IMG/VR virus record: IMGVR_UViG_3300025689_000001
Span: 1-64,000 of that record
From: a virus
Lineage: Duplodnaviria; Caudoviricetes
Direction: 5' to 3' (one strand)
Length of the DNA: 64,000 nucleotides
Below the pieces are notes generated by a model. That model saw only the letters and a list, made by a program, of their open reading frames with translations, was not told the DNA's origin and searched no databases. This document shows positions 4,696 through 42,635 of the stretch, piece after piece. The translations under genes and the position numbers were made by a program. Numbering within the stretch: position 1 is the stretch's first letter; each line of letters opens with the position of its first letter.

Positions 4696-5820
4696 ATGTG
4701 CATGGAAATTATAATTGATGGTTTTGACTTTTGGAATATGACCCCTCAGAAATATTACGCTTTCACTGCCGCATTCAAAGGTGATAAGAAAGCAAAAGCA
4801 AAAGAGCTTGTAATGTCAAATCGTTATCTCGGTGCCCGTAAGATGGATGGCGCTTGGAATATGATTATTCGTGACATGGACGGCAACTTCCACATGAGAA
4901 GCCGCACAGAGTCTGTCAATGGCGGCTATCAGGACAAGGCAGAATGGGTTCCTCATATCTGTGATGAACTTCGTTCTATTCCTAACGGTACTGCTCTTGT
5001 AGGAGAAATCTACTTCCCTGATAACGAAGGTAGCCGCAAGGTTACATCTGTATTAAATTGTCTTAAGGATAAGTGTCTTGAAAGACAGTTTAAGAACGGT
5101 AAACTTCATTTCTATATTTTTGATGTAGTTGCTTGGGGCGGTAAGTCTCTTATCGACGAACCTTTCTCTACGAGAACAACTTATGTAAACCTTGAAATGT
5201 TTAAAGACCTTGGCTTTGTTGAAACTGCTCAGTATCTAATGGGTGAAGACCTTTGGAATCTTTACGGTCAGGTTATTGCGGCAGGCGGTGAAGGTATCGT
5301 TATTACTCGTGAGGATTGCAAATATCTTTGTGGCAAAAGAACAGCGTGGATGACTCTTAAGATGAAGAAGGAACTTGAAGATACAATCGACGCATTTATC
5401 GACGGTGACTACAAAACTGCAACCCGTCTTTATACCGGTAAGGAAATCCAGACTTGGACCTTCTGGGAGAACGCAAAGACAGGTGAAAAGTTCAATACTT
5501 GTATGTTTGAAGATTACAAAAACGGCGTTCCTGTTGAACCAGTTACGAAGCCTTACTTCTACCATTGGGCAAGTGCAGTATCTTTCTCTGTAAAAGATAA
5601 TGGTAAAACTCGTCACATCGCTTGGATTAGCGGTATTACTGATGAATTGAAGAAAGAAATTGTAACAAATCCTAATAAGTGGATTGGCAAGGTTGCAGAA
5701 CTTACAGCAATGGAAATCGAGCATATCGACAATGATTACACTCTCCGTCACGGCAAAATTGAAAAATGGCGTGATGATAAGAGAGCCGATGATTGCGAGT
5801 TCAGTCAGCTCACTAAGTAA
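4696..5820 (+). CDS. ATP-dependent DNA ligase
   Basis: KMDG adenylation motif, VGEI, FYIFD, EGIV, LKMK, C-terminal LRH..WRDDK; no TAG. Confidence 0.9.
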   Translation: MCMEIIIDGFDFWNMTPQKYYAFTAAFKGDKKAKAKELVMSNRYLGARKMDGAWNMIIRDMDGNFHMRSRTESVNGGYQDKAEWVPHICDELRSIPNGTALVGEIYFPDNEGSRKVTSVLNCLKDKCLERQFKNGKLHFYIFDVVAWGGKSLIDEPFSTRTTYVNLEMFKDLGFVETAQYLMGEDLWNLYGQVIAAGGEGIVITREDCKYLCGKRTAWMTLKMKKELEDTIDAFIDGDYKTATRLYTGKEIQTWTFWENAKTGEKFNTCMFEDYKNGVPVEPVTKPYFYHWASAVSFSVKDNGKTRHIAWISGITDELKKEIVTNPNKWIGKVAELTAMEIEHIDNDYTLRHGKIEKWRDDKRADDCEFSQLTK

Positions 5821-5824
5821 AAGA

Positions 5825-5856
5825 TTAGACCATTATCCTTTTAAAACTACATTATA
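5825..5856 (+). promoter_or_regulatory. Candidate phage-specific (late) promoter TTAGA-N18-TACATTATA
   Basis: Same bipartite motif with the same 18-nt spacer at 8825 (+) and 56718 (-). Confidence 0.55.
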
Positions 5857-5912
5857 TTAGTAGAGGTAGGTTGAACCCTACCTCATTTTTTTTACAGTGA
5901 GGTGAAAAAGAA

Positions 5913-6953
5913 ATGCACGGCAGTTATGAATTTGAAACAGGGGTTCCATATCCTTATGATTTTGAGGCTCCATGCCAGACTCCGCCATCTATTCCAGTGC
6001 CAGGTTAGAGTCACTATCCTACTGATGATGATGGTCCTTGCGATACTCCTAAGTCTGTGCCGCCTTTCAAGCCAGAGCCAATTATCAGACCGCAGTTTGG
6101 ACCTACTCCAAACCCACCAGGAACATAGGAACCAGTTGAAATGAAGGTTCCTCGTATGCCATACCCTAAGAAACCAATATTCGCGCCAATTCCTCGCCAG
6201 CTACCACCAAAGCATACACAGGTACAGCCTCGCTGTTTTACTTGTAATCACTTTGAGATGTGTGGCTTCAAGAAAGATTATCTTAAGACGGTAACTTTAA
6301 TTCAAAATAGTCTTGGCGCACCACAGGCAAGTTATGAGATTACAGATAAGTATCTTATAATTCCAGAGTTTGTTGGATTCCCTCTCGCAGACGAAAGGAA
6401 ATATTTCCCTAAAGAGGTTGAGTTCAATAATACAGATAATAAAGGCTGCTTATTCCTTGCAAAGTTCAATGGTATTAACTATGTAAATGTAGTATACCTT
6501 GAAGGTCACCATTATATCCTCATTCAGTTGAAGTATAATAAGGAGACAGAACTTTACGAACTTAAGTCTTGTGAAGAAGCCTTTTACGGTGTTAAGTATG
6601 AGTTGGCAGACAAATCTCTTGAAGAAATTCAGCTTGGTCTTATTGAATGGAGAGAGATGATTGTAAATGCTCAGAAGCCACCACCACCACCAAGAAAAGA
6701 CATTATTAACACTACTCATTTCTCAGCCAATTTAAATTGTGATATGTATGACTGGAATAAGGAAACTCCAGAAGAAGCAATTCACAGATTGGCAAAGCAA
6801 TTCCCATATGGAATTCCTATTGATGAAGAAGCTAATAAATACTATCATGTTGCTACTTTCCATATCGAGCAGGGAGAAGTTCCATTATCTCCATACTTCC
6901 CGCCTAAGCCACCAAAGCCTAAGAGACCAGTTAAAAGATTCGGGGATATATAA
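5913..6953 (+). CDS. Proline-rich hypothetical protein (346 aa) with CxxC motif; 2 in-frame TAG
   Basis: ATG 5913 after GAGGTG, in frame with ORF 6141-6953 through two TAGs; Pro-rich termini, CFTCNHFEMC. Confidence 0.7.
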
Positions 6954-9160: not shown

Positions 9161-12100
9161 TATTGGTAGAAAGAATAAGAATTTTACGACACAGTGGAAT
9201 AAGTTACAGAATGAGTATGGTACAGAACTTGCATACCTTAATGGTTTTGGTGATGACCAGCTTTCTCTTGGTGAGTTTATTGACAACTTTGTTGATGAGC
9301 CGGTTGTAGCAGATAGCTCTATTGACTCAAACAGTAACGTAAGAAGAAAGGATATTGTAACACTTCTTTCAGAAATGCCTAAGCCTCATAGAAAGGTTAT
9401 GGCTTTTTAGAAGATTTATTATGAAATGTAGAAAGCATATGGCTTTAAGGCTGCTAACGAATGGCTTCGCCGCGACTGGACGGGAGAAATCTATATACAC
9501 GACGGAGATACAGCAACCTTTAAGTCTTATTGTTTTGCGTATGATTTAAAGGATTTGGCTGAGAAGGGACTTTATTTCCTTGGCGATACCTTCAATGCTA
9601 AGCCACCAAAGCACCTTACAACTTTTGTAGACTTCATAAAAGAGTTTATTAACTTTGCAAGTAATAGAACTTCGGGTGAATTTGCTGCGCCCATATGTTT
9701 CTTTTCTGCTAATCAGCAGGGTCGCATTTGCGGCTAACGGGGGAGGCTAAGTGAATGAATAATTCATATGTTAGTCCCGTGGGAATCATTAGAAAAGACA
9801 TCTACATTATTAGAAATGATATTAACACTAAGGTATATATAGGACAATCCTTAGATTCTGAACAGAGATTCAAATCTCATTGTAAGGGAGACTACGATAA
9901 TTCTTTAATTGATAAGGCAATTCAAAAATATGGATAGGAGCATTTCTGGTTTGAGATTCTTGAATCTCAAATAGAAAACTATAATGAAAGAGAACAATAT
10001 TGGATAAAATATTATAATTCATTAAAACCCTTTGGATATAATATTTTAAAAGGAGGAGAAACTCCACCAATACATTATGGCGATAATCATCCAAATGTAA
10101 AAATCTCAGACACGGATGTAGTCAAATTAAAACGAGACTTGTTAAAAACAGATATTTCATTATCTCAATTGGCAGATAAATATAGTATTTCAAAAAAACA
10201 AGTGTTAAGAATAAATCAAGGTATTAGTAGAGCATCTCTTAATGAAACTTATCCAATTAGAAAAAATCCAAATATGAATGGTAAATTGACAGAAGAAGAT
10301 GTAGATAATATCATAGATTTACTTAAATACACATATCGTTTTAATGGAGATATAGCGAGAGAATATAATGTTGAAGTTCATACTATATCAAAAATCAATA
10401 ATGGTATTATTCATCATCGAAATAACATTCAATATCCAATTCGTAATTGGAAAAGTTCTGGAATAAATTTATTTACTTATGAACAAGTAACTGAAATTAT
10501 TGAAGCCTTGTTAAAAACTAAAGAAAGTATTCAGTCTTTAGCAAAAAAATATAATGTAGATAGACGTGCTATTGAAAACATTAATCGTGGCACATCCAAA
10601 AAATATTTTCGAGAAGGACTGTCCTATCCTTTACGAAAATTCTAATGAAGCCTGTATCGACTATCCACGCTAAGTGGAGTACTCCTGCTATTGATACGCA
10701 GGGGGACAGAGAAACACTGCGACAAAGGTCGTAGGAAAATCCAGTCAGTTCCTATGGAAACATAGGAGTTCCGACGGCAGTCGGATTACCTAACCTTATT
10801 CCCTATATGTATTACTTCTGGAAAGAGGACCAGAAGAAAGCCTACTTCGGCATTACTGAATGGGACGAGTATGCTTATCAAAACATTCAGAGATTTATCT
10901 ATGCCGTTAACCAACCATGCGTAAGGGATAGAATCTAATTAGAACTGTCCATTTATTACTTTTCCAGTAATCACTGGGGTCACTTAAATAGTGGCTAACG
11001 AGGGAGCCTGAAGCCCCTGTCGGGAGACATAGGTATGGTAATCTCGTGGGAATCATTTAATTGCTCTAATAAAATAAATTAAAGGAGGTGAATAGATGGA
11101 AAAATATATTTATATAATTACAAATAATATCAACAATAAAGTTTATATTGGTCAATCCAATGACCCTAAATATAGATTTAATCAACATTGCCGCCCTAAT
11201 AATGATAATAGTTTAATAGATTTAGCTATACAAAAATATGGTAAAGAACATTTTACTATGTCAATATTAGAAGGTCCAATAAAAAATTATAATGAACGAG
11301 AAAAATATTATATACTTAAATATAATTCTTTAAGACCAAATGGCTATAATATTCTTGAAGGAGGAAATGAACCGCCTCTTTTTAAAGGTATTGAACATCC
11401 TGAAGCAAAATTTAAAACTAATATAGAATTAGAAAAAATTGTTTCAGATTTAAGATTTACAAAAAATAGTATAAGAGATATTGCGAAAAAATTTAATGTA
11501 TCTCCCTCTTGCGTAAGTGATATTAATTTAGGAAATACTTATTATAATTCAAATATTGAATATCCACTAAGAAAAAATCCTAATCCAACTGGCAAACTTG
11601 CTCAAGAAGATATTGAAGAAATTATCTATGCATTAAAGTTTAGTTATTTTTCTTATGAAGATATTGGAAAAAGATATGGAGTAGAGGGAAGGGCAATTTC
11701 AAGAATAAATAGTGGAACTTACCATAAGCAAGATAATATTTCTTATCCAATTAGACAATATCGGGCTACAAAAAACGCTGGTCAATTAACTTATCATCAA
11801 GTTTCAGAAATTATAGAGCTAATCTCTACGACAAAAATAAGTCTAAGGCAAATTGCATTACAATATAATGTAGCTCCAAATATAATAATTGGTATTAAAA
11901 ATGGTTCAACAAAAATGTATAGGAGAGATAATCTTATCTATCCACTTAGAGCAAATAATTAAATGAAGCCTGTATCGACTATCCTCGCGAAGAGGAGTAC
12001 CTCCGCTATTGATACGCGGGGGGAAAGAGTAATATTACTTTTAATTAAGTAATAAAAAATAGTCAGCGCATAATGAAAATTATGATAACGTGGGTCAGCA

Positions 12101-15100
12101 GTCTGCTTTTACAAATACATCTGTATTTGACAGAGAGTATCTTATGGCACTTTTCGGCGGAGCACAGTTCCCTAACGGTGAAGACATGGTTGACCACATT
12201 GATGGTATTATGGACTTCCAGAAACTTTATATGAAAGCTATGAGCGATATTCGTTCAGAGAATATGTTTACTTTCCCTGTTTCTACAATTTCACTTATAA
12301 GAAAGAATGGAGAGTTCCTCGACCCTGAGTTTGCGGAGTGGGCTATTGGACATAATATTAAATGGAGTGACTCAAACCTCTTTATTGATGATAATGTTTC
12401 AAGTCTTTCTAACTGTTGCCGCCTTAAGAGTGATATTCGTGACCTTGGGTATGTAATAAATGCCCTATTATCCCTTTACCAGTAATCTCTGGGGTATACT
12501 TTAAAGTATGCTAACGGGGAAACCTGAAGCCCTGTCGTGAGACATAGGTATGGCAATCCCGTGGGAAGTCTTTTCATCTATAATTTCTCTCAGCTAGAGA
12601 GGTGATATAGTGAAGAAAAGCATTTATGTAATTAAAAATAAAATTAATAATAAAGTTTATGTAGGTCAAGCAATAGACCCACAACGTAGATTTATAGCTC
12701 ATTTATCAAGAGCTAAAACAAATGTTGATAACTCTCCTATTCATGATGCAATAGAAGCATTAGGTAAAGAAAACTTCTATTATGAAATTTTAGAAAAAGA
12801 TATTGAAGATTATAATGAAAAGGAGAAATATTGGATAAAAAAATTGAATTGTAAACTTCCTAATGGATATAATTTGACAGATGGTGGCGAAGAACCACCA
12901 ACGTTTTATGGAGAAAATCATCCAAGAAGCGTTATACTTGATGAAACAGTATATAATATTATTGATGATTTAAAATGGAGTAAATTAACACAAGTACAAA
13001 TTGCAGAAAAATATGATGTTAATACACAAATGATTACTTCAATTAATAATGGTATAACTCATAAAATGGATTATGTTGATTATCCAATTAGAAAAGGAAC
13101 ACCATATCATTTATTACCAGAAGAGGTTGATAATATACAATGGTTATTACTTAATAGGGAATTTACAATAAAGACTATTGCAGAATACTTTCATGTATCG
13201 GAAGGAACAATAAAACACATAAATGCTGGAAGAAATTATAAAAATTCTGCTCTATCTTATCCTTTAAAAACAGGTAGAGCAAAAGGTGAAAAGGAACCTG
13301 TATCGACTATCCTCGCCAAGAGGAGTACACTTACTATTGATACGTAAGTGGAAATGGGGATATGCTTACACAGGATATGTAAGTATAAGAGATAGTCAGT
13401 GCCCACAGAAATGTGGGATTACATGATTTTAATTCCATCGGTGGTACTGCTTTGAAGGTTGGTTCTGTTAAGGTTAATACAATTAATCTTGCAAGACTTG
13501 CACTTGATACAAACACAAAAGAAGAGTATCTTGAAGAGCTGAAGGCAAGAACACTTTGCGTTGTTCGTTCACTTCATGTTGTCCGCCATATCATTGAAAG
13601 AAACGTTGAGAAAGGATTGCTTCCTAATTTCTCATATGGTCTTATTGATTTTGAACACCTTTATAATACAATCGGTTTCATTGGTATCTATGAGACAATG
13701 AAGAAGTTCGGTTGCACATATCAGGACAAACTCGGCAACACCTATTACACTCAGGAAGCCGCAGACTTCGGCAAGAAGATTTTCGATACCATGAGAGAGG
13801 TTGCTGATAAGTTTCTTGAGGAAGGCGGCTATGATTATAAGATTAACACAGAGCAGATTCCTAAACATCACTGGGAATGCGTGGCATAACGTCAAATAAA
13901 CCACGAAAAATAAAAAGTTCCACTAATTGACTTGGAGTTCTTTATAAGTTAGCGTTTCTTATAAAGATAACAGGGCGCAAGCGTAATGGTAGCGTGAACG
14001 ACTAAATGTGGAACCTCCAAATTGACTGAAAATATTGGAGATGCGATAGTCTGAACTCACTTATATATTGAAGAGTGAGAGAAATGGTCAAGAGTAAAGA
14101 CTCTTTAAAGAAGAACCATTTCCGCCAAATATATAAAGGAGTTGAAATGAAATGGATATATTAAATAGTTCAGGCTTTAAAATTGGAGTCGCTAAAATTG
14201 ATGGGGATTTAATTATCATAAATAATAATAATAAACCACTTTTAATTATAGAAGACGATTTAGAACTAATTCAAAAAATCAAAAATAAAGATGAAAGTGG
14301 TTTTGAAATATTGTTTAATAAATATTATCTCTTGATAGGAGAAATCGCCGCCCTTTATAATATGACTTATTCTACTACAAGAAAACATATGATAAAAATG
14401 GGCATTGATACAAAATCTAAAGCAGGACGCAGAAATTCGTCTTATGGAAAAACTTTTTCAGATGAACGAAAAGCAAAAATTGGTGCCGCGTCAAAAGGCA
14501 GAAAAATTACTCCCTATGAAAGGACTCCAGAAATTAAAAATAAGATTTCTGAAAGTTTATTAAAATATTATTCAGAGCATGAAGTTAGCGAAGAAACAAG
14601 AATAAAATTATCTCAAGCGTGGAAAGATGGCAAGTATGAAAATGCCAATATGGGACGTGGATATAATGGATTCTTTTACTCTATTAAAAATAATAAAAAA
14701 TTCTTTTTCAGAAGTTTGTTAGAACTATGTTATTTGATACAAATAGAAAACAATAAAGATATTTCTTTTTATGATATTGAACCATTTCAAATTAAACTAC
14801 CTAATAATCATCATTATACTCCAGACGTATTTTTAAATGGAGAAATTTTAATTGAATTAAAACCTAAAAAGCATTTATTATATGAAGATGAAGAAAGATT
14901 TAATTTAGAGGTATCTTCCGCAGAAGAATATTGCAAAAAACATAATTTAACTTTTAAAGTTATTTATGATGAAGATTTAGGTTTTAGAAGTGATAAATTT
15001 AAAAGATGGTTATTAAATAATAAAGAAGATTTAAGTAAATATCAAATTACTTTTTCTTCTAAAGATATTTGGTCATAAAAGTAACAGATTGGGTGAAAAC

Positions 15101-33433: not shown

Positions 33434-33511
33434 ATATATAGAAAGATAAAAGAAATATTAAAAATGAATATCCCTGCATAGTTGCTCGGCGATATTGATT
33501 GGAGGTATATA

Positions 33512-36500
33512 ATGGATATTAAGACACTCAAAAGATTTGACGGTCATTCCCATAGCATGTTTTCAAACTTCCGTTTGATTGACTCAATAAACAGACCAAA
33601 GGATATGATTCTTAAGGCATATGAACTTGGTATGTCAGGTATTGCACTAACAGACCATGAAACAGTTGCTGGTCATGTCGAATGGTTGAAGTGTGAAAAG
33701 GAACTGAAGAAAACTGGCAAAATTCCAGAGGACTTCAAGTGCGCTTGTGGCAATGAGATTTATCTTGTAGATGACCGTACAAATATTGAAAGATATTGGC
33801 ACTACATTCTCATCGCTAAGAACACAGAAGGACACAGGGCGTTGAGAGAATTAAGTTCAACGGCTTGGTATAATGGATTTAATTCTCGTGGTATGATGCG
33901 TGTTCCTACTGAAAAGGCAGAACTTGAAGCAATCGTTAGAAAGTATCCGAACACTTTGATTGCAACAACTGCGTGTCTTGGCGGTGAGTTTCCTCATTTT
34001 GTGGCGGAGTTAGTTAAGGCAGAACAAGCTCATGATGAAAATGAGATTCGCAAGTGGAAGATGGAAATTCATAAGTTCATGACTTGGAATATTGATTTGT
34101 TTGGTGATGATTTCTATATTGAAATCGCTGCCGCAAATGTGAAGGACCAGATTCGCTTTAATGAAAGAGTTAAAAGCATCGCTACCTACTACAAGAGAAA
34201 AGTTGTAATCGGTTCAGATGCACATTATCTTACTGCAAAGGAGCGTCCTGTTCATAAGGCTTATCTTAACTCAAAAGATGGTGAACGTGAGGTTGATGGT
34301 TTCTATACTTTCGCTCATATGATGGATAATGAAGAAGCATATGGAAATCTTAGCATGACTTTCTCTGAGGAAGAGTTCGCAGAGTTTTGTGCAAACTCAA
34401 TGGAAATTTATGATAAGATTGGTACTTATGATATTTTCAGAAAGCCAATCATTCCGAGAGTTGAAGTTGTACCAAAGGATTGTCCAGTAACTCCTGATTG
34501 GATTTGGAAGGATGATTGTCCGGTACTTACACAACTTATTCAGAGTGATAATGTACAGGAAAAGTATTGGGTAACAGAATGTTTACTCAGTATGATTGAT
34601 AAAGGACTTTTTGGAAAAGAGAATTATATGATTGTTCTTGAAACAGAAGCAAGAGTAATTAAGGTTGTTGGAGAGAAACTCGGTAACTGTCTGTACGAGT
34701 ATTTTAATACTTTCCAACATATGATTAACTTATTCTGGGATTGCGGTTCAATCGTAGGTCCTGGACGTGGTTCAGCAGTTTGTTTCTTAAGTAACTATCT
34801 TCTTGGAATAACTCAGCTTGACCCATTGAAGTGGGGACTTAAGTATTGGAGATTAACTTAATTTAAAGGTCTCCCTATATAGCGATATATAGAAAAATAA
34901 CTCCGTGAACGTTTAGCAAACGGTGTCGACTTTACTATTGGAACCGTAGGAAATGACGGTTAAAAAGTCGGCTAACAGGGAAGAGTCTTTATTCGTTAAA
35001 GAGAATCCTGTGCCAAGCTACTTAAATATTGGAGAGCCAATATTTAAGATGAAGGTGAAACGACTATCGAAAAGCATATTTAAATATGAACTGAGTAGAG
35101 TAGGATGGAGATGCTACCATCTGAAGCGCGGAGGCTCTCATAATATATCATATTAAAGAGGTGATAATTATGGGATATATTTATAAAATAGAAAATAATA
35201 TTAACCATAAAGTTTATATTGGACAAACAATTAAATTTTATGAAGAACGTTTTAAATAGCATAAGGTAAATTATACGAAAGAATATTTTTCATAGTTGGC
35301 ATTATATAAGGCATTTAATAAATATGGAATTGAAAATTTTACTTTCTTACCCATTGAAGAAGTTGCAAATGAACTTTTAGATGAGAGAGAAAAATATTGG
35401 ATTTCATTTTATGATAGCTATTATAATGGTTATAATTCTACTTTAGGAGGAAGATTAGTAGAATTATATGAGTGGGATGTTGATAAAATTATTGAAAGAT
35501 ATATGGTTTTAAAATCAGCTCGCAAGGTTGCAGAAGAAATCGGATGCGACCATTCAACTATTGATAGAATTTTAAATGAAAACAAAATTAAACGCTTTAC
35601 TTTAAAAGACCAAAGAGTTTATAACAATGTTGTTATTGAAAATGAAAAAGAAAGATATTTTTTCAAAGATAATCGAGAATGTGCAATTTTTCTTATTGAA
35701 AAAGGTTATAGTAAATCAAAAAATATTGATTATATATCTCATGTAATAAGAAAATCTATTAAACAAAATAAATATTATTTAGGTTTTAGAATATATTGTG
35801 AGAGCAAGATATAGTCTACACCCCTGGTGACAGGGGATTAATGTGTTTTAAATGAAGAGCGTGTAGAACTGCCTAAACTTTAATATTGGGCAGTATAAAA
35901 TGGGTGAACGCATTCAGCGGTGTCTTCTTAATTGAAGGCTAACGGTAGAAGTTGAATAAGGCAATGCGCGAAGCAGCTTCGTAAGAGAGACTACGGTCCT
36001 GAAAAGGATAGCAGTTGATACCGTGCTAAGTTAAACTTTATCTATTTTTCTGGAAAAGTTGAAGATTTATCTCATTCTAATACTTTATAACTGAGGTGAT
36101 AGAATGGAAAGAGAAATCAAAAACTTTCCCGGGTATACAATAACTGATGATGGAAAAGTTATCAGTTACAAATTTAAAAAGCCAAGAGTAATGAAAACTT
36201 GGTATCAAAAATCTGGATATGAAAATATTAAACTATGTAAAGATAATGTAACTTATCATTTCTTAATTCATAGATTGGTTGCAGAAGCTTTTATTCCAAA
36301 TCCAAATAATTTACCTGAAGTGAATCATAAAGATAAAAGTAGACAAAATAATCGAGTAGAGAACTTGGAGTGGAGTAATAGAGCAGATAATCTTTATGAT
36401 AGTTATAGTACAATGACTGCTACAAGAAATTTTAGAGAATGTATCTTAATAAGAGAGAAAGACAATGCTGAAATTAAATCTTTTCAATCTGTTAAAGCGG

Positions 36501-39500
36501 CAGCAGAATATGCAAATGAAGAATTTGGTTGTAGTATTAGTGGAATGAGAAAAAATTATAAATCCAGAGGATATAGATTAGAGTTTAAAAAGTGTAACGA
36601 CTAAATTGAGATTATAAAATCTCTAAAAGGATGGAGATGAATACCATTCCGTAGTGCCCATTATGGACAAAAGTCCTAAAGAGATAGTCTATTCCCCTAA
36701 TAAATATCGGGAAACCGAGGGTGTAAAAAGGATATTGATATTGACCTTACTCCTTCAAAGAGAGCTGCTGTTTTCGCCGCCCTTCGTAAGGAGCGTGGAG
36801 AGCTCAACGTTATTCAGGTTTGTACTTATGGTACAGAAGGTACTCGTTCTGCAATTGCCGCCGCTTGTCGTGGTTATCGCTCAGAGTGGTATCCCGATGG
36901 TATTGATACAGATACAGCACAGTATCTTAGCTTGTTGATTCCTCAGGAGCGTGGACTTCTCTGGTCAATTCATGATGCCGTTTATGGTAATGAGGAAAAG
37001 GGCAGGGCTCCTATCGCAGCTTTGGTAAATGAGCTTGATAAGTATCCCGGTCTTCTTGAGATAATCGAGTCTATTGATGGGTCGAAGAAAAAACTGGCCC
37101 TTAAACACCTTTTCCATTAATCAATGGGGTTAAGATTTAATCTTAGCTAACGGGGAAGCCTGAAGCTCCTGTCGTGAGACATAGGTATGGTAATCCCGTG
37201 GGAAAAACTTTTCTTCACGATTTTATTGAAGAGTATTTATCATTTTATTACCTTATTAATGAGAGGTGATAATAATGAATTATATATATGGTTATCAAAA
37301 TAAAATAACAGGTAAATGGTATGTAGGACAAACTTCTAAGTCTATTGAAGAAAGACATAGATTACATTTATCTTCTGCTTATCATGAAACTTGTAATGAT
37401 TATAATTGCTTATTCCATAAAAAAATTAGAGAATATGGTATTGAAAATTTTGAATTAGTTCTATTAGAACAGGTTATTGACAAATCTTTATTAGACGAAA
37501 GAGAGCAATATTGGATAAAAGAAAAGAAGTCTTTTGTTAGAGACAACGGATATAATTTAACAACTGGCGGCCAACAAAGAAAAAATAATGAAGACTATCA
37601 AGATATCCGTCAAACGTTTTCCAGTGAAGAAATTCAGGAAGTATATCGTCTAATAAGAGATGAAAACATCAAACTTACAGATATAGCAAATAAATATGAT
37701 GTTTCTTTAAGTTTAATTTGTATGATTAATTCTGGTAAAAAATATCATAATGATAATTTAATCTACCCTTTAAGAAAACAAAACATTAAAATTTCTGAAG
37801 AAATTGTCGATGAAATAATTTCTTTATTAAAAGAAAATAAAGGTAATGCAGAAATTGCTAAGATTTATGGAATAAATGAAGATGTGGTTTATAGGATTAA
37901 TAAAGGTTTAGCACATAAAAGAGATATTGATTATCCAATTAGACAAAACAGTAGTAAAAAGCAAGAGCTTATTGATAGAGCAAATACAATTAAATCTTTA
38001 TTAAAAGAAAATAAACTTAATAATAGACAAATTGCTGATTTAGTAGGATGCGATCCGTCTGTTGTATCTAATATAAATTATGGAAAAAATTATTATGATA
38101 ATACTCTTGAATATCCGTTAAGAAAAAGTTAAACCTGTATCGACTATCTCTGGTGAGACAGAGAGTAGGGACACTATTGATACGTGTCGCCACGGAGGCA
38201 ACAATGTGGCTGAGAACCGAAATGGGGTTATTAGTATTTTATACTAATTAAAAGATAGTCAGGGCTTGATTGAAAAATCAAGATAACCGTAGTTAATAAG
38301 AGAGGACAGCACGCATCTGGTGTTATTCTTTATAACGATTCTCCATTTGAAACTGGCGCAATTATGAGAAGTCCGAACGGAGATTTGACAACACAATATT
38401 CTCTTCACGAAGCAGAGGAACTTGGAGACGTTAAGTATGACTTCCTTGTAACTGAAATTTGTGATAAGCTCACAATTGCAATCAGTTTGCTTCAGAAGGA
38501 TAATTTAATTGACCCAACCCTGAACTTAAGAGAGGTTTATAATAAGTATCTTCATCCTGACGTTCTTGACCTTAAGGACCAGAAGATTTGGGATGCACTT
38601 AGTAACGGTACGGTTCTTGATGTATTCCAGTTCAGTACGGGCGTTGGTCTTGCAACTGCAAAGCAGGTTAAGCCGCAGAATCCTACTGATATGCTTAACG
38701 CAAATGCGTCGACATTGGCGCTTACACACTTTACCTTTAATCAAAGGGGTTAAGATTTAATCTTAGCTAACGGGGAAGCCTGAAGCCCCTGCCGGGAGGC
38801 ATAGGTATGGTAATCCCGTGGGAAATATTGATTCACCTCATAGGAGGTGATAGAATGCATTTAATATATTGTTATACAAATTTAATCAATAATAAAAAGT
38901 ATATTGGACAAACAAATAACTTAAAAAGAAGAATAAAATAGCATAAAGATGATTCTTTTACTAATTATAGTGAAGCAAGATATAATCAATTAATTCATCG
39001 AGCTATTAGAAAGTATGGTTTAGATAATTTTGAAATAAGCGTCTTAGAAGATAATATCTCTACGGAATTAATTGATGAAAAAGAGAAATATTATATAAAT
39101 AAATATAATACAATAGCTCCAAATGGATACAATTTAACAGAGGGTGGAATGGCAAACAAAACTGCTCCAGTTCCCTCTAAATATGAAGATGTTTTTATGA
39201 TGATAGTAGAAGAATTAAAAGGAGCGAAAAGCCTTAAAGAAATTGCAGGACAATTTAATATGTCTTATTCTTATTTAAGTGATATAAATAACGGAACAAG
39301 ATTATTTCATGAAAATATAGTTTATCCAATAAGAAAAAGTTCAAATTCTCCAAGTAAAGAAGATTATTAGATTATTATTGATATGATAGAAAATACAAAT
39401 TTATCTTGTGCTAAAATAGCTCAATAGTTAAATTTAAATGCTGCAACGGTTAGAAAAGTAAATAATGGATAGATTAAAAAAGTGGTTAATTTATTTCCTG

Positions 39501-42500
39501 AAAAGACTTTTCCGCTAAGAAAGGTGAATCAATAAACCTGTAGAGACTATCTCTGGTTAGACAGAGAGTAGGTTTACTATTGATACGTAAATCAAAATGG
39601 TGTGCCGTAAGGTAAAAGATAGTCCAGACCACAAACAGTTGCCCAGCTGGTAGAGAAATCTATAGTGGTATGTAATGAGACTTATGGGTGAGCCTGGAGA
39701 GGAAAGACCTCTCAATAGATATTGCCGTCTTAAGGAAGATATGAGAGCATGGTACATGGAGGCAAAAGATGCTGGTCTTACAGAAGAGCAGATTAAAACT
39801 CTTGAACCATATTATCTTCCTAACTGTGGAGTTCCTTCTTCACAGGAAGACATGATGGAAATCTGTATGGACGAAAAGATTGCAAACTTTAGTCTTTCTG
39901 AAGCAAATGCGACAAGAAAGATAGTTGCAAAGAAGAAAATGGACCAGATTCCTGCTCTTCACGAGAAGTTTGTAAATGCTTGTCCGACAAAGAGATTTGG
40001 AGAATATGTATGGAAGACAACAATGGGTCCTCAGATGGGATAAGTAACGATTGTCCTATCAAATACCCTTTCTTCTTATCAGAAGGGTTCTAATTTATTA
40101 GAGCTAACGGTTGAACCCAACACTTATAGATAGAACAAAAAGCTATCTGTAAGAAGGGCAATCCCGTGGGAATCATCTTATGGATAGTAATAAATGGAGT
40201 TGATATAATGTATTACATTTATTGCTATAAAAATAAAATTAATGGACATAAATATGTTGGACAAACAAACAACATAAAAAGAAGAATTAATGAACATAAA
40301 AGCGCCGCCTTCAATGAAAATAGCGGTGATTATGATTTATTATTTCATAAAAAATTAAGACAATATGGAATAGATAATTTTGAAATAGTTATTTTAGAAG
40401 AAATTGACTCAAATGACCAGACTGTAGTTGATGAAAGAGAACAGTTTTGGATTAAATTTGAAAATAGTTTTGTTAGAAATGGTAAAGGATATAATCTAAC
40501 AGAAGGCGGTCAGTTCTCTAAGACAGTTAATAAAAAAATATCTTTGGAAGATGCAAAAGAAATTCAGCAAATGATATTAAAAGGTAAATCATATGAAGAT
40601 ATTCAAAATAAATATAATATCTGTCCAAGTTATATTACAATGATAAATCAAGGGAATTATTTCTATGACAAAGATTTAAGTTACCCTCTTCATAAATATT
40701 ATAAATCAGATGATGATTATAATGAATTAATTGATTTACTTAAATATAGTGATTTATCATTAAAAGCTATTTCAGAAAAATTAGGTTTTGGATATTCAAC
40801 AGTCAAAAAGATTAATGAAGGTAGACTTAGAAAAGGCTTATCAGAAGAATATCCAATAAGAAAAAAGACCGTGTATGCAATAAAAGCAGATAGGGTTAAA
40901 GATTTATTATTAAACTCTACTTTAACTATTCCAGAAATAATGGTTGAGACTAAAGTAAGTCAAGAAACTGTTAGACGTATTAATATTGGTGAGTCACATC
41001 ATGACTCAAATTTAAACTATCCATTAAGATGAAGCCTGTATCGACTATCGCGGGTTAAGCCGCGAGTAGGGTGACTATCGATACGTCACTCGAAACGGGT
41101 ATTGGCGCTCCTAATAAGGAGCGAGTTAAGATATAGTCAGAGCCTATAGGAATATAGGATTACTCGATTCATTTGCAAAGCCTCATGCTCTTGCTTACTC
41201 ATTCGTTGGTATTCAGACTCTTTATCTTGCAACAACATATTCCGACATTTATTGGAATTGTGCTTGTTTGATTACAAATGCCGGCGGTGCGGATTTACTT
41301 GACACAGAAGATGTGGACAAGGAACTGGAAGAAATGGCAGAGCAGGATATTGAGGAAGTCGACGAAGACGAACTCATTGAAGCAATTAGTAAAAAGTATA
41401 AGAACAAGAGCGTTAACTATGGTAAGATTAGTGTTGCTCTTGGTAAGTCTAAAAAGGCAGGCATTAATGTTTTGCCGCCAGACATCAATAAATCAGACCT
41501 CATCTTTAAGCCAGATGCAGAGCGTAATGCAATCATTTATGGTTTGAAGGGTATCGACAGAATTGGTACAAGCCTTGTTTATGAAATCATGGAAAATCGT
41601 CCTTATACTTCTCTTGAAGATTTTACTAATAAGGTAAAAGTTAATAAAACTCAAATGGTTTCCTTAATTAAGGCAGGTGCATTTGACAATATTTATGGTG
41701 ACAGAGAAAAGACAATGGACTCTTATCTTGAACTCATTGCAGATAAGAAAAAGCGTATCACTTTGCAGAATATGACAATGTTGTATAATAAAGGTCTTAT
41801 TCCAGAAGAGCTTTCGTTTGAAGCAAAGGTTTATAACTTTACTAAGTATATTAGAAAGTTCAAACAGGGAGATTATTATTATCTCAATCATATTGCAATG
41901 AGATTCTTTATGGAGAATTATGACACAGATGTGCTTGTAGATATGGTAATTGACGGTGAAGATAATCACGCTTTAATTAAGCAGTCAACATGGGATAATA
42001 CCTATGATAAGGCAATGAATCCAGTAAGAGCATGGATGAAAGCAAATCAGGAAGAAATTCTTAGCACATTGAACAGAAGTCTTTTCGAAGATGTTCGTAA
42101 CAAGTATGCTCTTGGTTCGATTGATAAATGGGATATGGACGCCCTTGGTACATATTGCCACAATCATGAACTTGCAAATCTCAATAAGAGAGCATATGGA
42201 ATTGTAGATTTCGAGAGTCTTGACCCTGAGCCAGTAATTGCGTCTGAGTTCACAACAAAGGACGGCGGCGTAATTAGAATGTATGAAATTTCAAGAATCT
42301 GCGGAACTGTTATTGATAAGGATAAGAATAAGAGTACAGTAGTTCTCTTAACTCCTACAATGCAGGTTGTAAACGTAAAGGTTTGGAAAAATCAATACGC
42401 AAAGTGGGATAGACAAATTAGTAGAAAGAATCCTGATGGTACTAAGACAGTTATTGAGAAGAGCTTCTTCGCAAGAGGTAATAAACTGATTATAACTGGT

Positions 42501-42635
42501 ATTCGTCGTGATGATGATTTTGTACCTAAGAAGTATAAGAGTACTGCTCTTCCTCTCTTTGAGAAAATTGAGGAGATGGACGAAGAAGGATTCATCACAA
42601 AGTCTACAACAGAACGTGCGGAGGTAGAGGAGTAA
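33512..42635 (+). CDS. dnaE: DNA polymerase III alpha (C-family), 6 exons (33512-34853, 35846-35874, 36731-37082, 38290-38709, 39673-40041, 41167-42635), 1326 aa spliced
   Basis: PHP HSH/TDH/SDAH, GPGRGSA; junctions restore YWR(F)LNEERVELP|DIDID, IDG(L)VNKRGQHASG, NA(L)MRLM, MG(Y)SFAKPHALAYS; exon total 3981 nt, in frame, no TAG. Confidence 0.93.
34854..35845 (+). mobile_element. Group I intron dnaE-I1 (HEG in P8 region)
   Basis: GGAGAT| pairs IGS GTCTCC, 3' exon TTTTAAAT pairs ATTTAAAG; CGACTAT...AAGATATAGTC; ends in G. Confidence 0.9.
35170..35841 (+). CDS. Intron-encoded GIY-YIG homing endonuclease; 3 TAG (the last lies in the P7 strand)
   Basis: GYIYKI...VYIGQT, RFK[TAG]H, GYN, HTH; TAG 35812 read-through gives TAA 35839-35841. 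Confidence 0.85.
35875..36730 (+). mobile_element. Group I intron dnaE-I2, inserted immediately before the catalytic DIDID
   Basis: ACTGCCT| pairs IGS GGGCAGT, 3' exon GATATTG pairs TAATATT; GACTA/GATAGTC; ends in G. Confidence 0.9.
36104..36604 (+). CDS. Intron-encoded NUMOD4-HNH homing endonuclease
   Basis: FPGYTITDDGKV, IHRLVAEAFIPNP, VNHKD...NN.VENLEW. Confidence 0.9.
   Translation: MEREIKNFPGYTITDDGKVISYKFKKPRVMKTWYQKSGYENIKLCKDNVTYHFLIHRLVAEAFIPNPNNLPEVNHKDKSRQNNRVENLEWSNRADNLYDSYSTMTATRNFRECILIREKDNAEIKSFQSVKAAAEYANEEFGCSISGMRKNYKSRGYRLEFKKCND
37083..38289 (+). mobile_element. Group I intron dnaE-I3
   Basis: Splits Leu T|TA; IGS AACTG-GCCC pairs both exons; conserved core; ends in G. 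Confidence 0.9.
37275..38132 (+). CDS. Intron-encoded GIY-YIG homing endonuclease with 3 repeats
   Basis: YIYGY...WYVGQT, GYN, three IN.G...YP(L/I)R repeats. Confidence 0.9.
   Translation: MNYIYGYQNKITGKWYVGQTSKSIEERHRLHLSSAYHETCNDYNCLFHKKIREYGIENFELVLLEQVIDKSLLDEREQYWIKEKKSFVRDNGYNLTTGGQQRKNNEDYQDIRQTFSSEEIQEVYRLIRDENIKLTDIANKYDVSLSLICMINSGKKYHNDNLIYPLRKQNIKISEEIVDEIISLLKENKGNAEIAKIYGINEDVVYRINKGLAHKRDIDYPIRQNSSKKQELIDRANTIKSLLKENKLNNRQIADLVGCDPSVVSNINYGKNYYDNTLEYPLRKS
38710..39672 (+). mobile_element. Group I intron dnaE-I4
   Basis: Splits Leu T|TA; IGS CATTG-GCGC pairs both exons; core nearly identical to I3; ends in G. Confidence 0.9.
38855..39535 (+). CDS. Intron-encoded GIY-YIG homing endonuclease with 2 repeats; 4 TAG
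   Basis: LIYCY...KYIGQT, RIK[TAG]H; TAG 38939, 39368, 39425, 39470; TAA 39533-39535. Confidence 0.85.
40042..41166 (+). mobile_element. Group I intron dnaE-I5
   Basis: Splits Tyr T|AT; GGGAT pairs GTCCT; CCTGTATCGACTAT...AAGATATAGTC; ends in G. Confidence 0.88.
40208..41032 (+). CDS. Intron-encoded GIY-YIG homing endonuclease with 3 repeats
   Basis: YIYCY...KYVGQT, GYN, repeats ending YPLH/YPIR/YPLR. Confidence 0.9.
   Translation: MYYIYCYKNKINGHKYVGQTNNIKRRINEHKSAAFNENSGDYDLLFHKKLRQYGIDNFEIVILEEIDSNDQTVVDEREQFWIKFENSFVRNGKGYNLTEGGQFSKTVNKKISLEDAKEIQQMILKGKSYEDIQNKYNICPSYITMINQGNYFYDKDLSYPLHKYYKSDDDYNELIDLLKYSDLSLKAISEKLGFGYSTVKKINEGRLRKGLSEEYPIRKKTVYAIKADRVKDLLLNSTLTIPEIMVETKVSQETVRRINIGESHHDSNLNYPLR

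Follow-up and report, generated by a model that had tools for sequence, protein, structure and literature searches.

Polymerase gene and its 29-nt exon

We analyzed the 64,000-nt stretch of Caudoviricetes DNA (the window) that forms the first 64 kb of the 122,745-bp IMG/VR virus record IMGVR_UViG_3300025689_000001 (estimated completeness 75%). The analysis concerned its gene for a replicative DNA polymerase (dnaE), in which an exon of only 29 nt (the micro-exon) is located between two introns, I1 and I2. The phage DNA was obtained from activated sludge; runs from cattle gut, pig gut, and wastewater contain parts of it as well. The closest cultured relatives show only ~35% identity; they are phages of Enterococcus, Staphylococcus, and Lactobacillus and the gut phage Phass-1. 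For comparison, 80 of 231 relatives found were kept as related loci, from viral contigs and two phage records, and 81 loci were usable (single loci are denoted by L numbers). The features of the two introns and the adjoining exons, together with the basis of their assignment, are as follows:

33512-34853, + strand: dnaE exon 1, with the PHP domain and the start of the Pol III alpha NTPase domain (open reading frame, ORF; Pfam PHP; positions 21-92 of the DNA_pol3_alpha profile; colinear with residues 1-445 of L011)
34854-35845, + strand: intron I1 (992 nt), a group I intron of the IA type with P7.1/P7.2 whose P8 loop contains an endonuclease ORF (helices P1-P10; homologues at the same site in L012, L018, L020, L074, and L096-L105)
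34861-34874, + strand: internal guide of I1, consisting of the P10 strand 34861-34868 and the P1 strand 34869-34874 (pairing by coordinates and energy)
35170-35841, + strand: homing endonuclease gene of I1, GIY-YIG with a helix-turn-helix (HTH) region (Pfam with TAG read as Gln; 1MK0; PHROG homing endonuclease families)
35846-35874, + strand: dnaE exon 2, the 29-nt micro-exon, encoding (F)LNEERVELP (sequence reading, relatives, colinear proteins, and E. coli alignment)
35875-36730, + strand: intron I2 (856 nt), a group I intron of the IA type whose P6 loop contains an endonuclease ORF (helices; similarity of the 3' core; homologues in relatives)
35882-35894, + strand: internal guide of I2, consisting of the P10 strand 35882-35887 and the P1 strand 35888-35894 (pairing; compensatory exon/guide change in L104 and L105)
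36104-36604, + strand: homing endonuclease gene of I2, HNH with NUMOD4, I-HmuI-like, no in-frame TAG (Pfam HNH_3 and NUMOD4; PHROG 59, E 2e-37; 1U3E)
36731-37080, + strand: dnaE exon 3, which opens with the catalytic DIDID (Pfam profile positions 103-179; colinear with residues 455-571 of L011; L011 aligned to E. coli DFDVD)

The pieces of the polymerase gene are spread over 33482-42635 on the + strand and encode PHP, Pol III alpha NTPase, finger, and HhH domains. Pfam, intact relatives, and E. coli structures agree on the order PHP, NTPase/palm with two catalytic aspartates, finger, and HhH, which identifies the product as a C-family replicative polymerase (DnaE).

The match to the Pfam DNA_pol3_alpha profile halts at position 92 in exon 1 and restarts at position 103 in exon 3, leaving ~ten residues absent between these two exons. 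The final base of exon 1 is a T (34853), the first base of a Phe codon, and this T together with the 29 nt of exon 2, which also ends in T, forms the 10 codons of FLNEERVELP. Exactly 30 nt separate the codons for WR and DID in 68 of the 81 related loci. In L007, L008, and L046 these 30 nt are also uninterrupted, with an intron only further downstream, which raises the number of uninterrupted loci to 71. All of these encode (F/Y)LNxERxEL(P/G), and the 29 nt vary among the relatives in the manner of exon codons. The uninterrupted polymerases of L011 and L014 (1312 and 1314 aa) are colinear with the exons of the window only when the micro-exon is included; apart from these ten residues and one junction codon, the exons match both proteins end to end. 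With the intronless L011 as query, the micro-exon segment was aligned with RFLNPERVSMP of E. coli Pol III alpha, located directly before DFDVD (PDB 2HNH). A PDB search with exon 3 alone gave no match. The DFDVD motif of E. coli contains the catalytic Asp401 and Asp403.

Because the profile gap, the 30-nt spacing in relatives, the colinear proteins, and the E. coli alignment all agree, the stretch 35846-35874 is, by DNA and protein comparison, a genuine exon of dnaE. Therefore, skipping of this exon would shift the reading frame and delete a conserved segment of the active site. These results are in line with a first-pass annotation of the same DNA, which had placed the junctions of both introns at these positions, the micro-exon next to the catalytic aspartates, and a frameshift upon exon skipping. 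The junctions are upheld by the sequence itself, the relatives, and the colinear proteins, the neighborhood of the aspartates by the E. coli alignment, and the frameshift by the one extra base that results when exon 1 is joined straight to exon 3.

Architecture of the two introns

The evidence on splicing is a comparison of DNA sequences, and public RNA-labelled runs were searched as well. Each intron was aligned with three homologues (four sequences per intron), and the helices were placed by hand, by coordinates. Both I1 and I2 contain P1, P3, P4, P5, P7, P7.1/P7.2, P8, P9, P10, and a terminal G in canonical order. They therefore combine the hallmarks of group I introns, namely a P1 with U·G, a terminal G with P10, and a conserved P3-P9 core with the P, Q, R, and S elements. 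In addition, both introns carry an in-frame TAA two codons past the 5' splice site.

P1 of I1 is formed by 34848-34853 and 34869-34874 (6 bp, with U·G at the splice site, -7.0 kcal/mol), and its P10 by 34861-34868 and the first 8 nt of exon 2 (35846-35853; 8 bp), with the terminal G at 35845. The corresponding P1 of I2 is formed by nt 23-29 of exon 2 (35868-35874) and 35888-35894 (7 bp, with U·G at the splice site, -10.4 kcal/mol), and its P10 by 35882-35887 and 36731-36736 (6 bp), with the terminal G at 36730. Both helix placement and energies bear out the earlier proposal that the first 8 nt of the exon serve as P10 of I1 and the last 7 nt as P1 of I2. The P10 pairings of both introns are weak in energy, which is usual in group I introns.

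Compensatory changes were found in P2, P3, P8, and P9 of I1, in which a P2 is present; in P3, two adjacent pairs switch from C-G to U-A. In I2, one pair of P3 changes from G-C to A-U. Covariation was also observed in P1 at the I2 site, where an exon with CCT (Pro) is accompanied by a matching guide, versus GGT (Gly) with a compensating guide in L051, L052, and L082, and a further C-G to U-A exchange between the exon and the I2 guide is found in L104 and L105. The extra helices between P7 and P3' place both introns in subgroup IA. P7.2 of I1 is located at 35103-35122, and P7.1 and P7.2 of I2 are located at 36608-36623 and 36629-36650, respectively. From their resemblance to the Twort and T4 td introns, the subgroup is presumably IA2. 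Core motifs are common to I1 and I2, and their P7 helices are identical. Both inserts are thus predicted to be complete, self-splicing ribozymes of the IA type.

The 3' core of I2 is ~92% identical to the intron cores of Twort, K-like, and Listeria phages. At 90-95% identity, the last ~55 nt of I2 (36676-36744 with the adjoining exon) have counterparts in more than 200 phage records, among them Staphylococcus, Listeria, Enterococcus, Bacillus, and Lactobacillus phages. By sequence identity, this end segment of the core is common to a very wide range of group I introns in Firmicutes phages.

Allele states of the two insertion sites

A survey of co-occurrence in the relatives, as had been suggested in the first-pass annotation, recovered four allele states: no intron, I1 only, I2 only, and both. 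Intronless alleles represent the majority of loci, and one of them, found in run X20, is 95% identical to the window in the exons. A contig of X20 that joins 34849 to 36731 was considered as a possible complementary DNA (cDNA) of the spliced transcript and rejected, since it represents a different allele with synonymous differences in the 30 nt and is probably DNA. I1 occurs alone in L020, L074, L096-L101, and the cattle-gut contig X4, where an I1 ~99% identical to that of the window is followed by the micro-exon and then by exon 3. I2 occurs alone in L006, L009, and L094; in L006 and L009 it is 92-98% identical to I2 of the window. Both introns are present in the window, L012, L018, L104, and L105, which correspond to at least four lineages. 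Each intron is thus also found alone, with the same junctions. Because all four states occur, I1 and I2 appear to move independently and without excluding each other.

Unequal divergence of the two introns was observed between L012 and L105, where I1 is 94% identical and I2 only 74-84%. Therefore, I1 would have moved between alleles that already held I2, which counters blocking of one intron by the other. This pattern and the twin alleles in at least four lineages speak against the mutual blocking considered in the first-pass annotation.

Joint transfer of both introns with the intervening exon apparently also happens. The exon 1 sequences of L018 and the window share 61% identity more than 150 nt upstream of the junction and 87-92% identity in the last 150 nt of exon 1, and the identity rises to 98-99% over I1, exon 2, and as much of I2 as is available. 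Such a gradient in an otherwise divergent gene points to co-conversion of the I1-exon-I2 block. Co-homing, which had also been considered previously, is thus partly supported by L018, but it is not obligatory. A scan of the exon flanks of the first 30 loci in 30-nt bins gave mosaic identity and no clear co-conversion tract, so that the direct comparison with L018 was the informative one. The HNH-type I2 was found in 4 of 12 carriers of I1 versus 2 of 76 alleles free of I1 (Fisher p ~0.003, or 0.013 after merging L104 and L105).

Several further observations were made on individual alleles. On the reverse strand of L104 (~5108-5932), a distant dnaE has the same twin-intron layout with a 29-nt exon, and both nuclease genes are deleted (I1 ~465 nt, I2 ~330 nt). 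Its near relative L105 retains both nuclease ORFs. In L006 (4054-4577), the I2 ribozyme is 96-98% identical at both ends, and the HNH gene is replaced by a short degenerate insert that resembles the start of a GIY-YIG gene, which suggests replacement of a nuclease gene inside one intron.

The exact I2 site is occupied by a second, unrelated group I intron lineage in L051 (1469-1805), L052 (8781-9117), L056 (2285-3450), and L082 (8769-9935). The introns of this lineage either have no ORF (337 nt) or carry a SegE-like GIY-YIG/NUMOD3 nuclease, and they have a long P10, and their guide compensates for the Pro or Gly codon of the exon. Since an unrelated lineage uses it, the I2 site is a hotspot. 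In L013 (5879-5920), the I2 site has no intron and contains six extra in-frame bases, AAACTT (Lys-Leu), which are identical to the first six bases of I2. These bases may be the footprint of an imprecise intron loss beside the catalytic aspartates. Another intron is located at codon 41 of exon 3 in L007, L008, L013, and L046, a site that is empty in the window.

Endonuclease genes and reading of TAG codons

The assignment of a GIY-YIG nuclease to I1 and an HNH nuclease to I2 in the first-pass annotation holds, with the qualification that the I1 gene is intact only when TAG is read as Gln. Its ORF contains in-frame TAG codons at 35257-35259 and 35293-35295, and a third one at 35812-35814 within a conserved core element; the next stop codon is TAA at 35839-35841. 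The Pfam profile PF01541 is matched over its full length (1-78 of 78, 32.6 bits) only with TAG as Gln, and two stops interrupt the domain when the standard code is applied. The nuclease matches the catalytic domain of I-TevI (1MK0) with an E value of 8e-12. Paralogues have Gln at the first two of the TAG positions, and TAG coincides with Gln at four positions of the nuclease alignment. If the TAG at 35812-35814, the nominal stop of the I1 nuclease, is read through, the gene is extended by 27 nt, to within 4 nt of the 3' splice site.

Other features of the phage are consistent with this reading. Two adjacent genes for tRNA-CUA are located at 121331-121484 of the genome, outside the window, the longest frame grows from 1130 to 2653 aa once TAG is read through, and the relative Phass-1 is filed in a code 15 clade. 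The phage is thus predicted to read TAG as Gln, as in genetic code 15. The exons of dnaE do not contain any TAG.

Three more introns of the same gene were located downstream, each with a GIY-YIG nuclease gene (approximate coordinates):

37081-38288, + strand: intron I3
38709-39671, + strand: intron I4
40041-41168, + strand: intron I5

The nuclease gene of I4 contains four in-frame TAG codons that need read-through, and here too in-frame TAG codons are aligned with Gln of paralogues. The intron nucleases of several relatives need the same reading. Two of the five dnaE intron nucleases (I1 and I4) are TAG-recoded.

The I2 nuclease gene is intact, and its product matches residues 4-148 of I-HmuI (1U3E) with an E value of 2e-9 over residues 3-149, i.e., nearly its full length. 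By this similarity, it is an I-HmuI-like HNH enzyme and a putative nickase. The last codons of its gene overlap the 5' strand of P7.

Proposed splicing and spread of the two introns

We consider it very probable that the two inserts are separate mobile group I introns, which splice independently and spread via their own nucleases, and that the 29-nt exon is the stretch of coding sequence left between them. These introns would have been inserted at neighboring conserved sites of the replicative polymerase gene, one between WR and F and the other immediately before DID. Each intron, as a complete ribozyme with its own guide, would remove itself without the other and in either order. For this, P1 and P10 of I1 would be formed with the 3' end of exon 1 and with nt 1-8 of the micro-exon, respectively, and P1 and P10 of I2 with nt 23-29 of the micro-exon and with the beginning of exon 3. 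I1 probably splices first, as it is transcribed ~850 nt before the I2 core is complete. The spliced product would restore RFLNEERVELP-DIDID. At the DNA level, I1 would spread by its I-TevI-like GIY-YIG enzyme and I2 by its I-HmuI-like HNH nickase. Because the two sites are only 29 bp apart, repair tracts initiated by either nuclease could copy the neighbor, and the pair would move sometimes as a block and sometimes singly. The I1 nuclease would require amber suppression (TAG as Gln) by the phage tRNA-CUA and is probably made only when this tRNA is available.

Some observations weigh against this explanation. Rfam cmscan with the group I intron model (Intron_gpI, RF00028) gave no match in the window, and ORF-less relatives of the introns scored only 14.3 and 11.5 bits against the RF00028 cutoff of 50. 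The group I assignment is based on hand-built helices, on four sequences per intron, and on similarity to annotated phage introns. The public RNA-labelled runs contained short pieces of the intron cores and one 252-nt fragment of I1, and no spliced junction was found in these runs. Moreover, the excess of twin alleles among I1 carriers is confounded by shared ancestry and uneven sampling and is therefore no more than suggestive. As for the Rfam result, RF00028 does detect the introns of Twort orf142. This model is weak on ORF-bearing IA introns, and the missed match reflects a limit of the model for such introns.

The first-pass annotation had suggested that splicing of the two introns may be ordered or coupled. 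A related possibility is that the micro-exon is occasionally skipped, as in Twort orf142 and SIOphi, thereby down-regulating the polymerase. Adjacent group I introns of phages are documented to cause exon skipping (PMC11878797; PMC3073962 for Twort), and skipping of the micro-exon would frameshift dnaE. The common core motifs and identical P7 helix of I1 and I2 also count in favor of these possibilities. However, the cognate P1 helices are stable (-7.0 and -10.4 kcal/mol), whereas cross pairings are near zero, with -0.1 kcal/mol for exon 1 with the I2 guide and +0.9 kcal/mol for the P10 strand of I1 with exon 3. In contrast, the Twort introns around the 23-nt exon begin with a nearly identical guide region. 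Furthermore, I1 P10 and I2 P1 occupy non-overlapping ends of the exon, 14 nt apart, and each intron occurs singly with unchanged junctions, which argues against coupling. Ordered or coupled splicing and regulatory skipping are therefore very unlikely. It is extremely improbable that 34854-36730 is a single composite intron or twintron that is removed as one piece, with the micro-exon as intron sequence. This is favored only by the physical closeness of the two inserts. With one-piece removal, dnaE would go out of frame and lose a motif of ten residues that all 81 relatives and E. coli DnaE have in common. In addition, either half also occurs by itself at its site, and the 29 nt show exon-like codon variation in the relatives.

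With regard to mobility, I1, the micro-exon, and I2 could form one composite mobile unit, in which the nuclease targets overlap or cooperate and the introns move obligatorily together. The L018 block, 98-99% identical within a gene of 61% identity and flanked by a co-conversion gradient, and the over-representation of twin alleles among I1 carriers agree with such a unit. Trans-mobilization of a neighboring element is also known for T4 mobE and I-TevIII (PMC2790892). Nevertheless, we regard an obligate unit as unlikely, as single-intron alleles outnumber the twins and hold the closest relatives of each intron of the window (I1 in X4; I2 in L006 and L009), I1 and I2 diverge unequally between L012 and L105, and L104 retains both ribozymes with both nuclease genes deleted. 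A looser form of linkage, which we put forward tentatively and with considerable doubt, is that I1-exon-I2 is a two-nuclease mobile module. A break on either side of the 29-bp exon, made by the GIY-YIG enzyme upstream or by the HNH nickase downstream, would drag I1 and I2 together into naive alleles, and the excess of twins would be explained in this way. The amber-gating of the I1 nuclease would then stagger the two activities in the course of infection.

Comparison with known systems

Neighboring group I introns around a very short exon have precedents in other phages. Twort orf142 contains three group I introns and a very short internal exon and shows exon skipping (Landthaler and Shub 1999, as cited in PMC3073962 and PMC11878797). 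Direct reading of the Twort record gave a length of 23 nt for the exon that separates introns two and three (L091, 936-958). The window resembles orf142 in having adjacent IA-type group I introns in one phage gene. The skipping in Twort is attributed to neighboring introns that start with nearly the same guide region, whereas the guides in the window are unrelated and do not cross-pair. The window also differs in that the host gene is dnaE and not a structural gene, and in that both introns carry nuclease genes. In Bastillevirinae phages, cDNA shows a small exon between two self-splicing introns (phiNIT1) and skipping in SIOphi, and several genes have two or three introns (PMC11878797). These introns are in other genes and another phage lineage, and the small exon there was shown by cDNA, whereas that of the window is derived from DNA comparison.

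The nucleases also have known counterparts. The DNA polymerase intron of SPO1 with I-HmuI (1U3E) resembles I2, and the T4 td intron with I-TevI (1MK0) resembles I1, all being group I introns of phage genes for DNA metabolism. In contrast to SPO1 and T4 td, the window has both nuclease types 29 bp apart in one gene, and its I1 nuclease has an HTH C-terminal region where I-TevI has a zinc finger and linker. An intron endonuclease gene with in-frame recoded stops has been described in an early gene of TGA-recoded Agate phages, for which a delay of the nuclease to late infection was proposed (Borges et al., bioRxiv 10.1101/2021.08.26.457843). The Agate phages are like the window in having recoded stops in an intron nuclease gene, but the codon in the window is TAG, read as Gln. 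Mini-exons of 3 bp and 1 nt between independently inserted group I introns are reported for organelles (cited in PMC12308204). Unlike the micro-exon of the window, these are located in mitochondrial genes and are much smaller, and splicing there is often maturase-dependent.

The layout is therefore already known from other phages. The window adds a clean and well-supported case, with a natural allele series of unusual completeness, and not a new kind of element. It illustrates how an essential polymerase gene can survive the accumulation of selfish introns in its most conserved stretch. Since the two ribozymes use different ends of the 29-nt exon, it can serve both at once. The natural alleles (empty, with each intron singly, with both, and with both but with the nuclease genes deleted) constitute a ready system for studying co-conversion and interference between neighboring homing elements, and are also suited to asking whether stop-codon recoding times the expression of a nuclease. 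Such exons and introns in uncultured phages are missed by both gene callers and Rfam.

Related introns in other genes

Two segments of the window (11063-11155 and 12622-12674) share 77-79% identity with the terminal part of the I1 ribozyme and the beginning of its nuclease gene, and are presumably parts of introns of another gene. In L095 (1791-1839) and L102 (1689-1738), a conserved 3' end of the I1 type is followed by an exon start TTTAAAT, and the downstream frame is not dnaE. These matches to the I1 3'-end pattern were set aside from the allele comparison, as they are located in other genes. Judging from these sequences, introns related to I1 also reside in genes other than dnaE.

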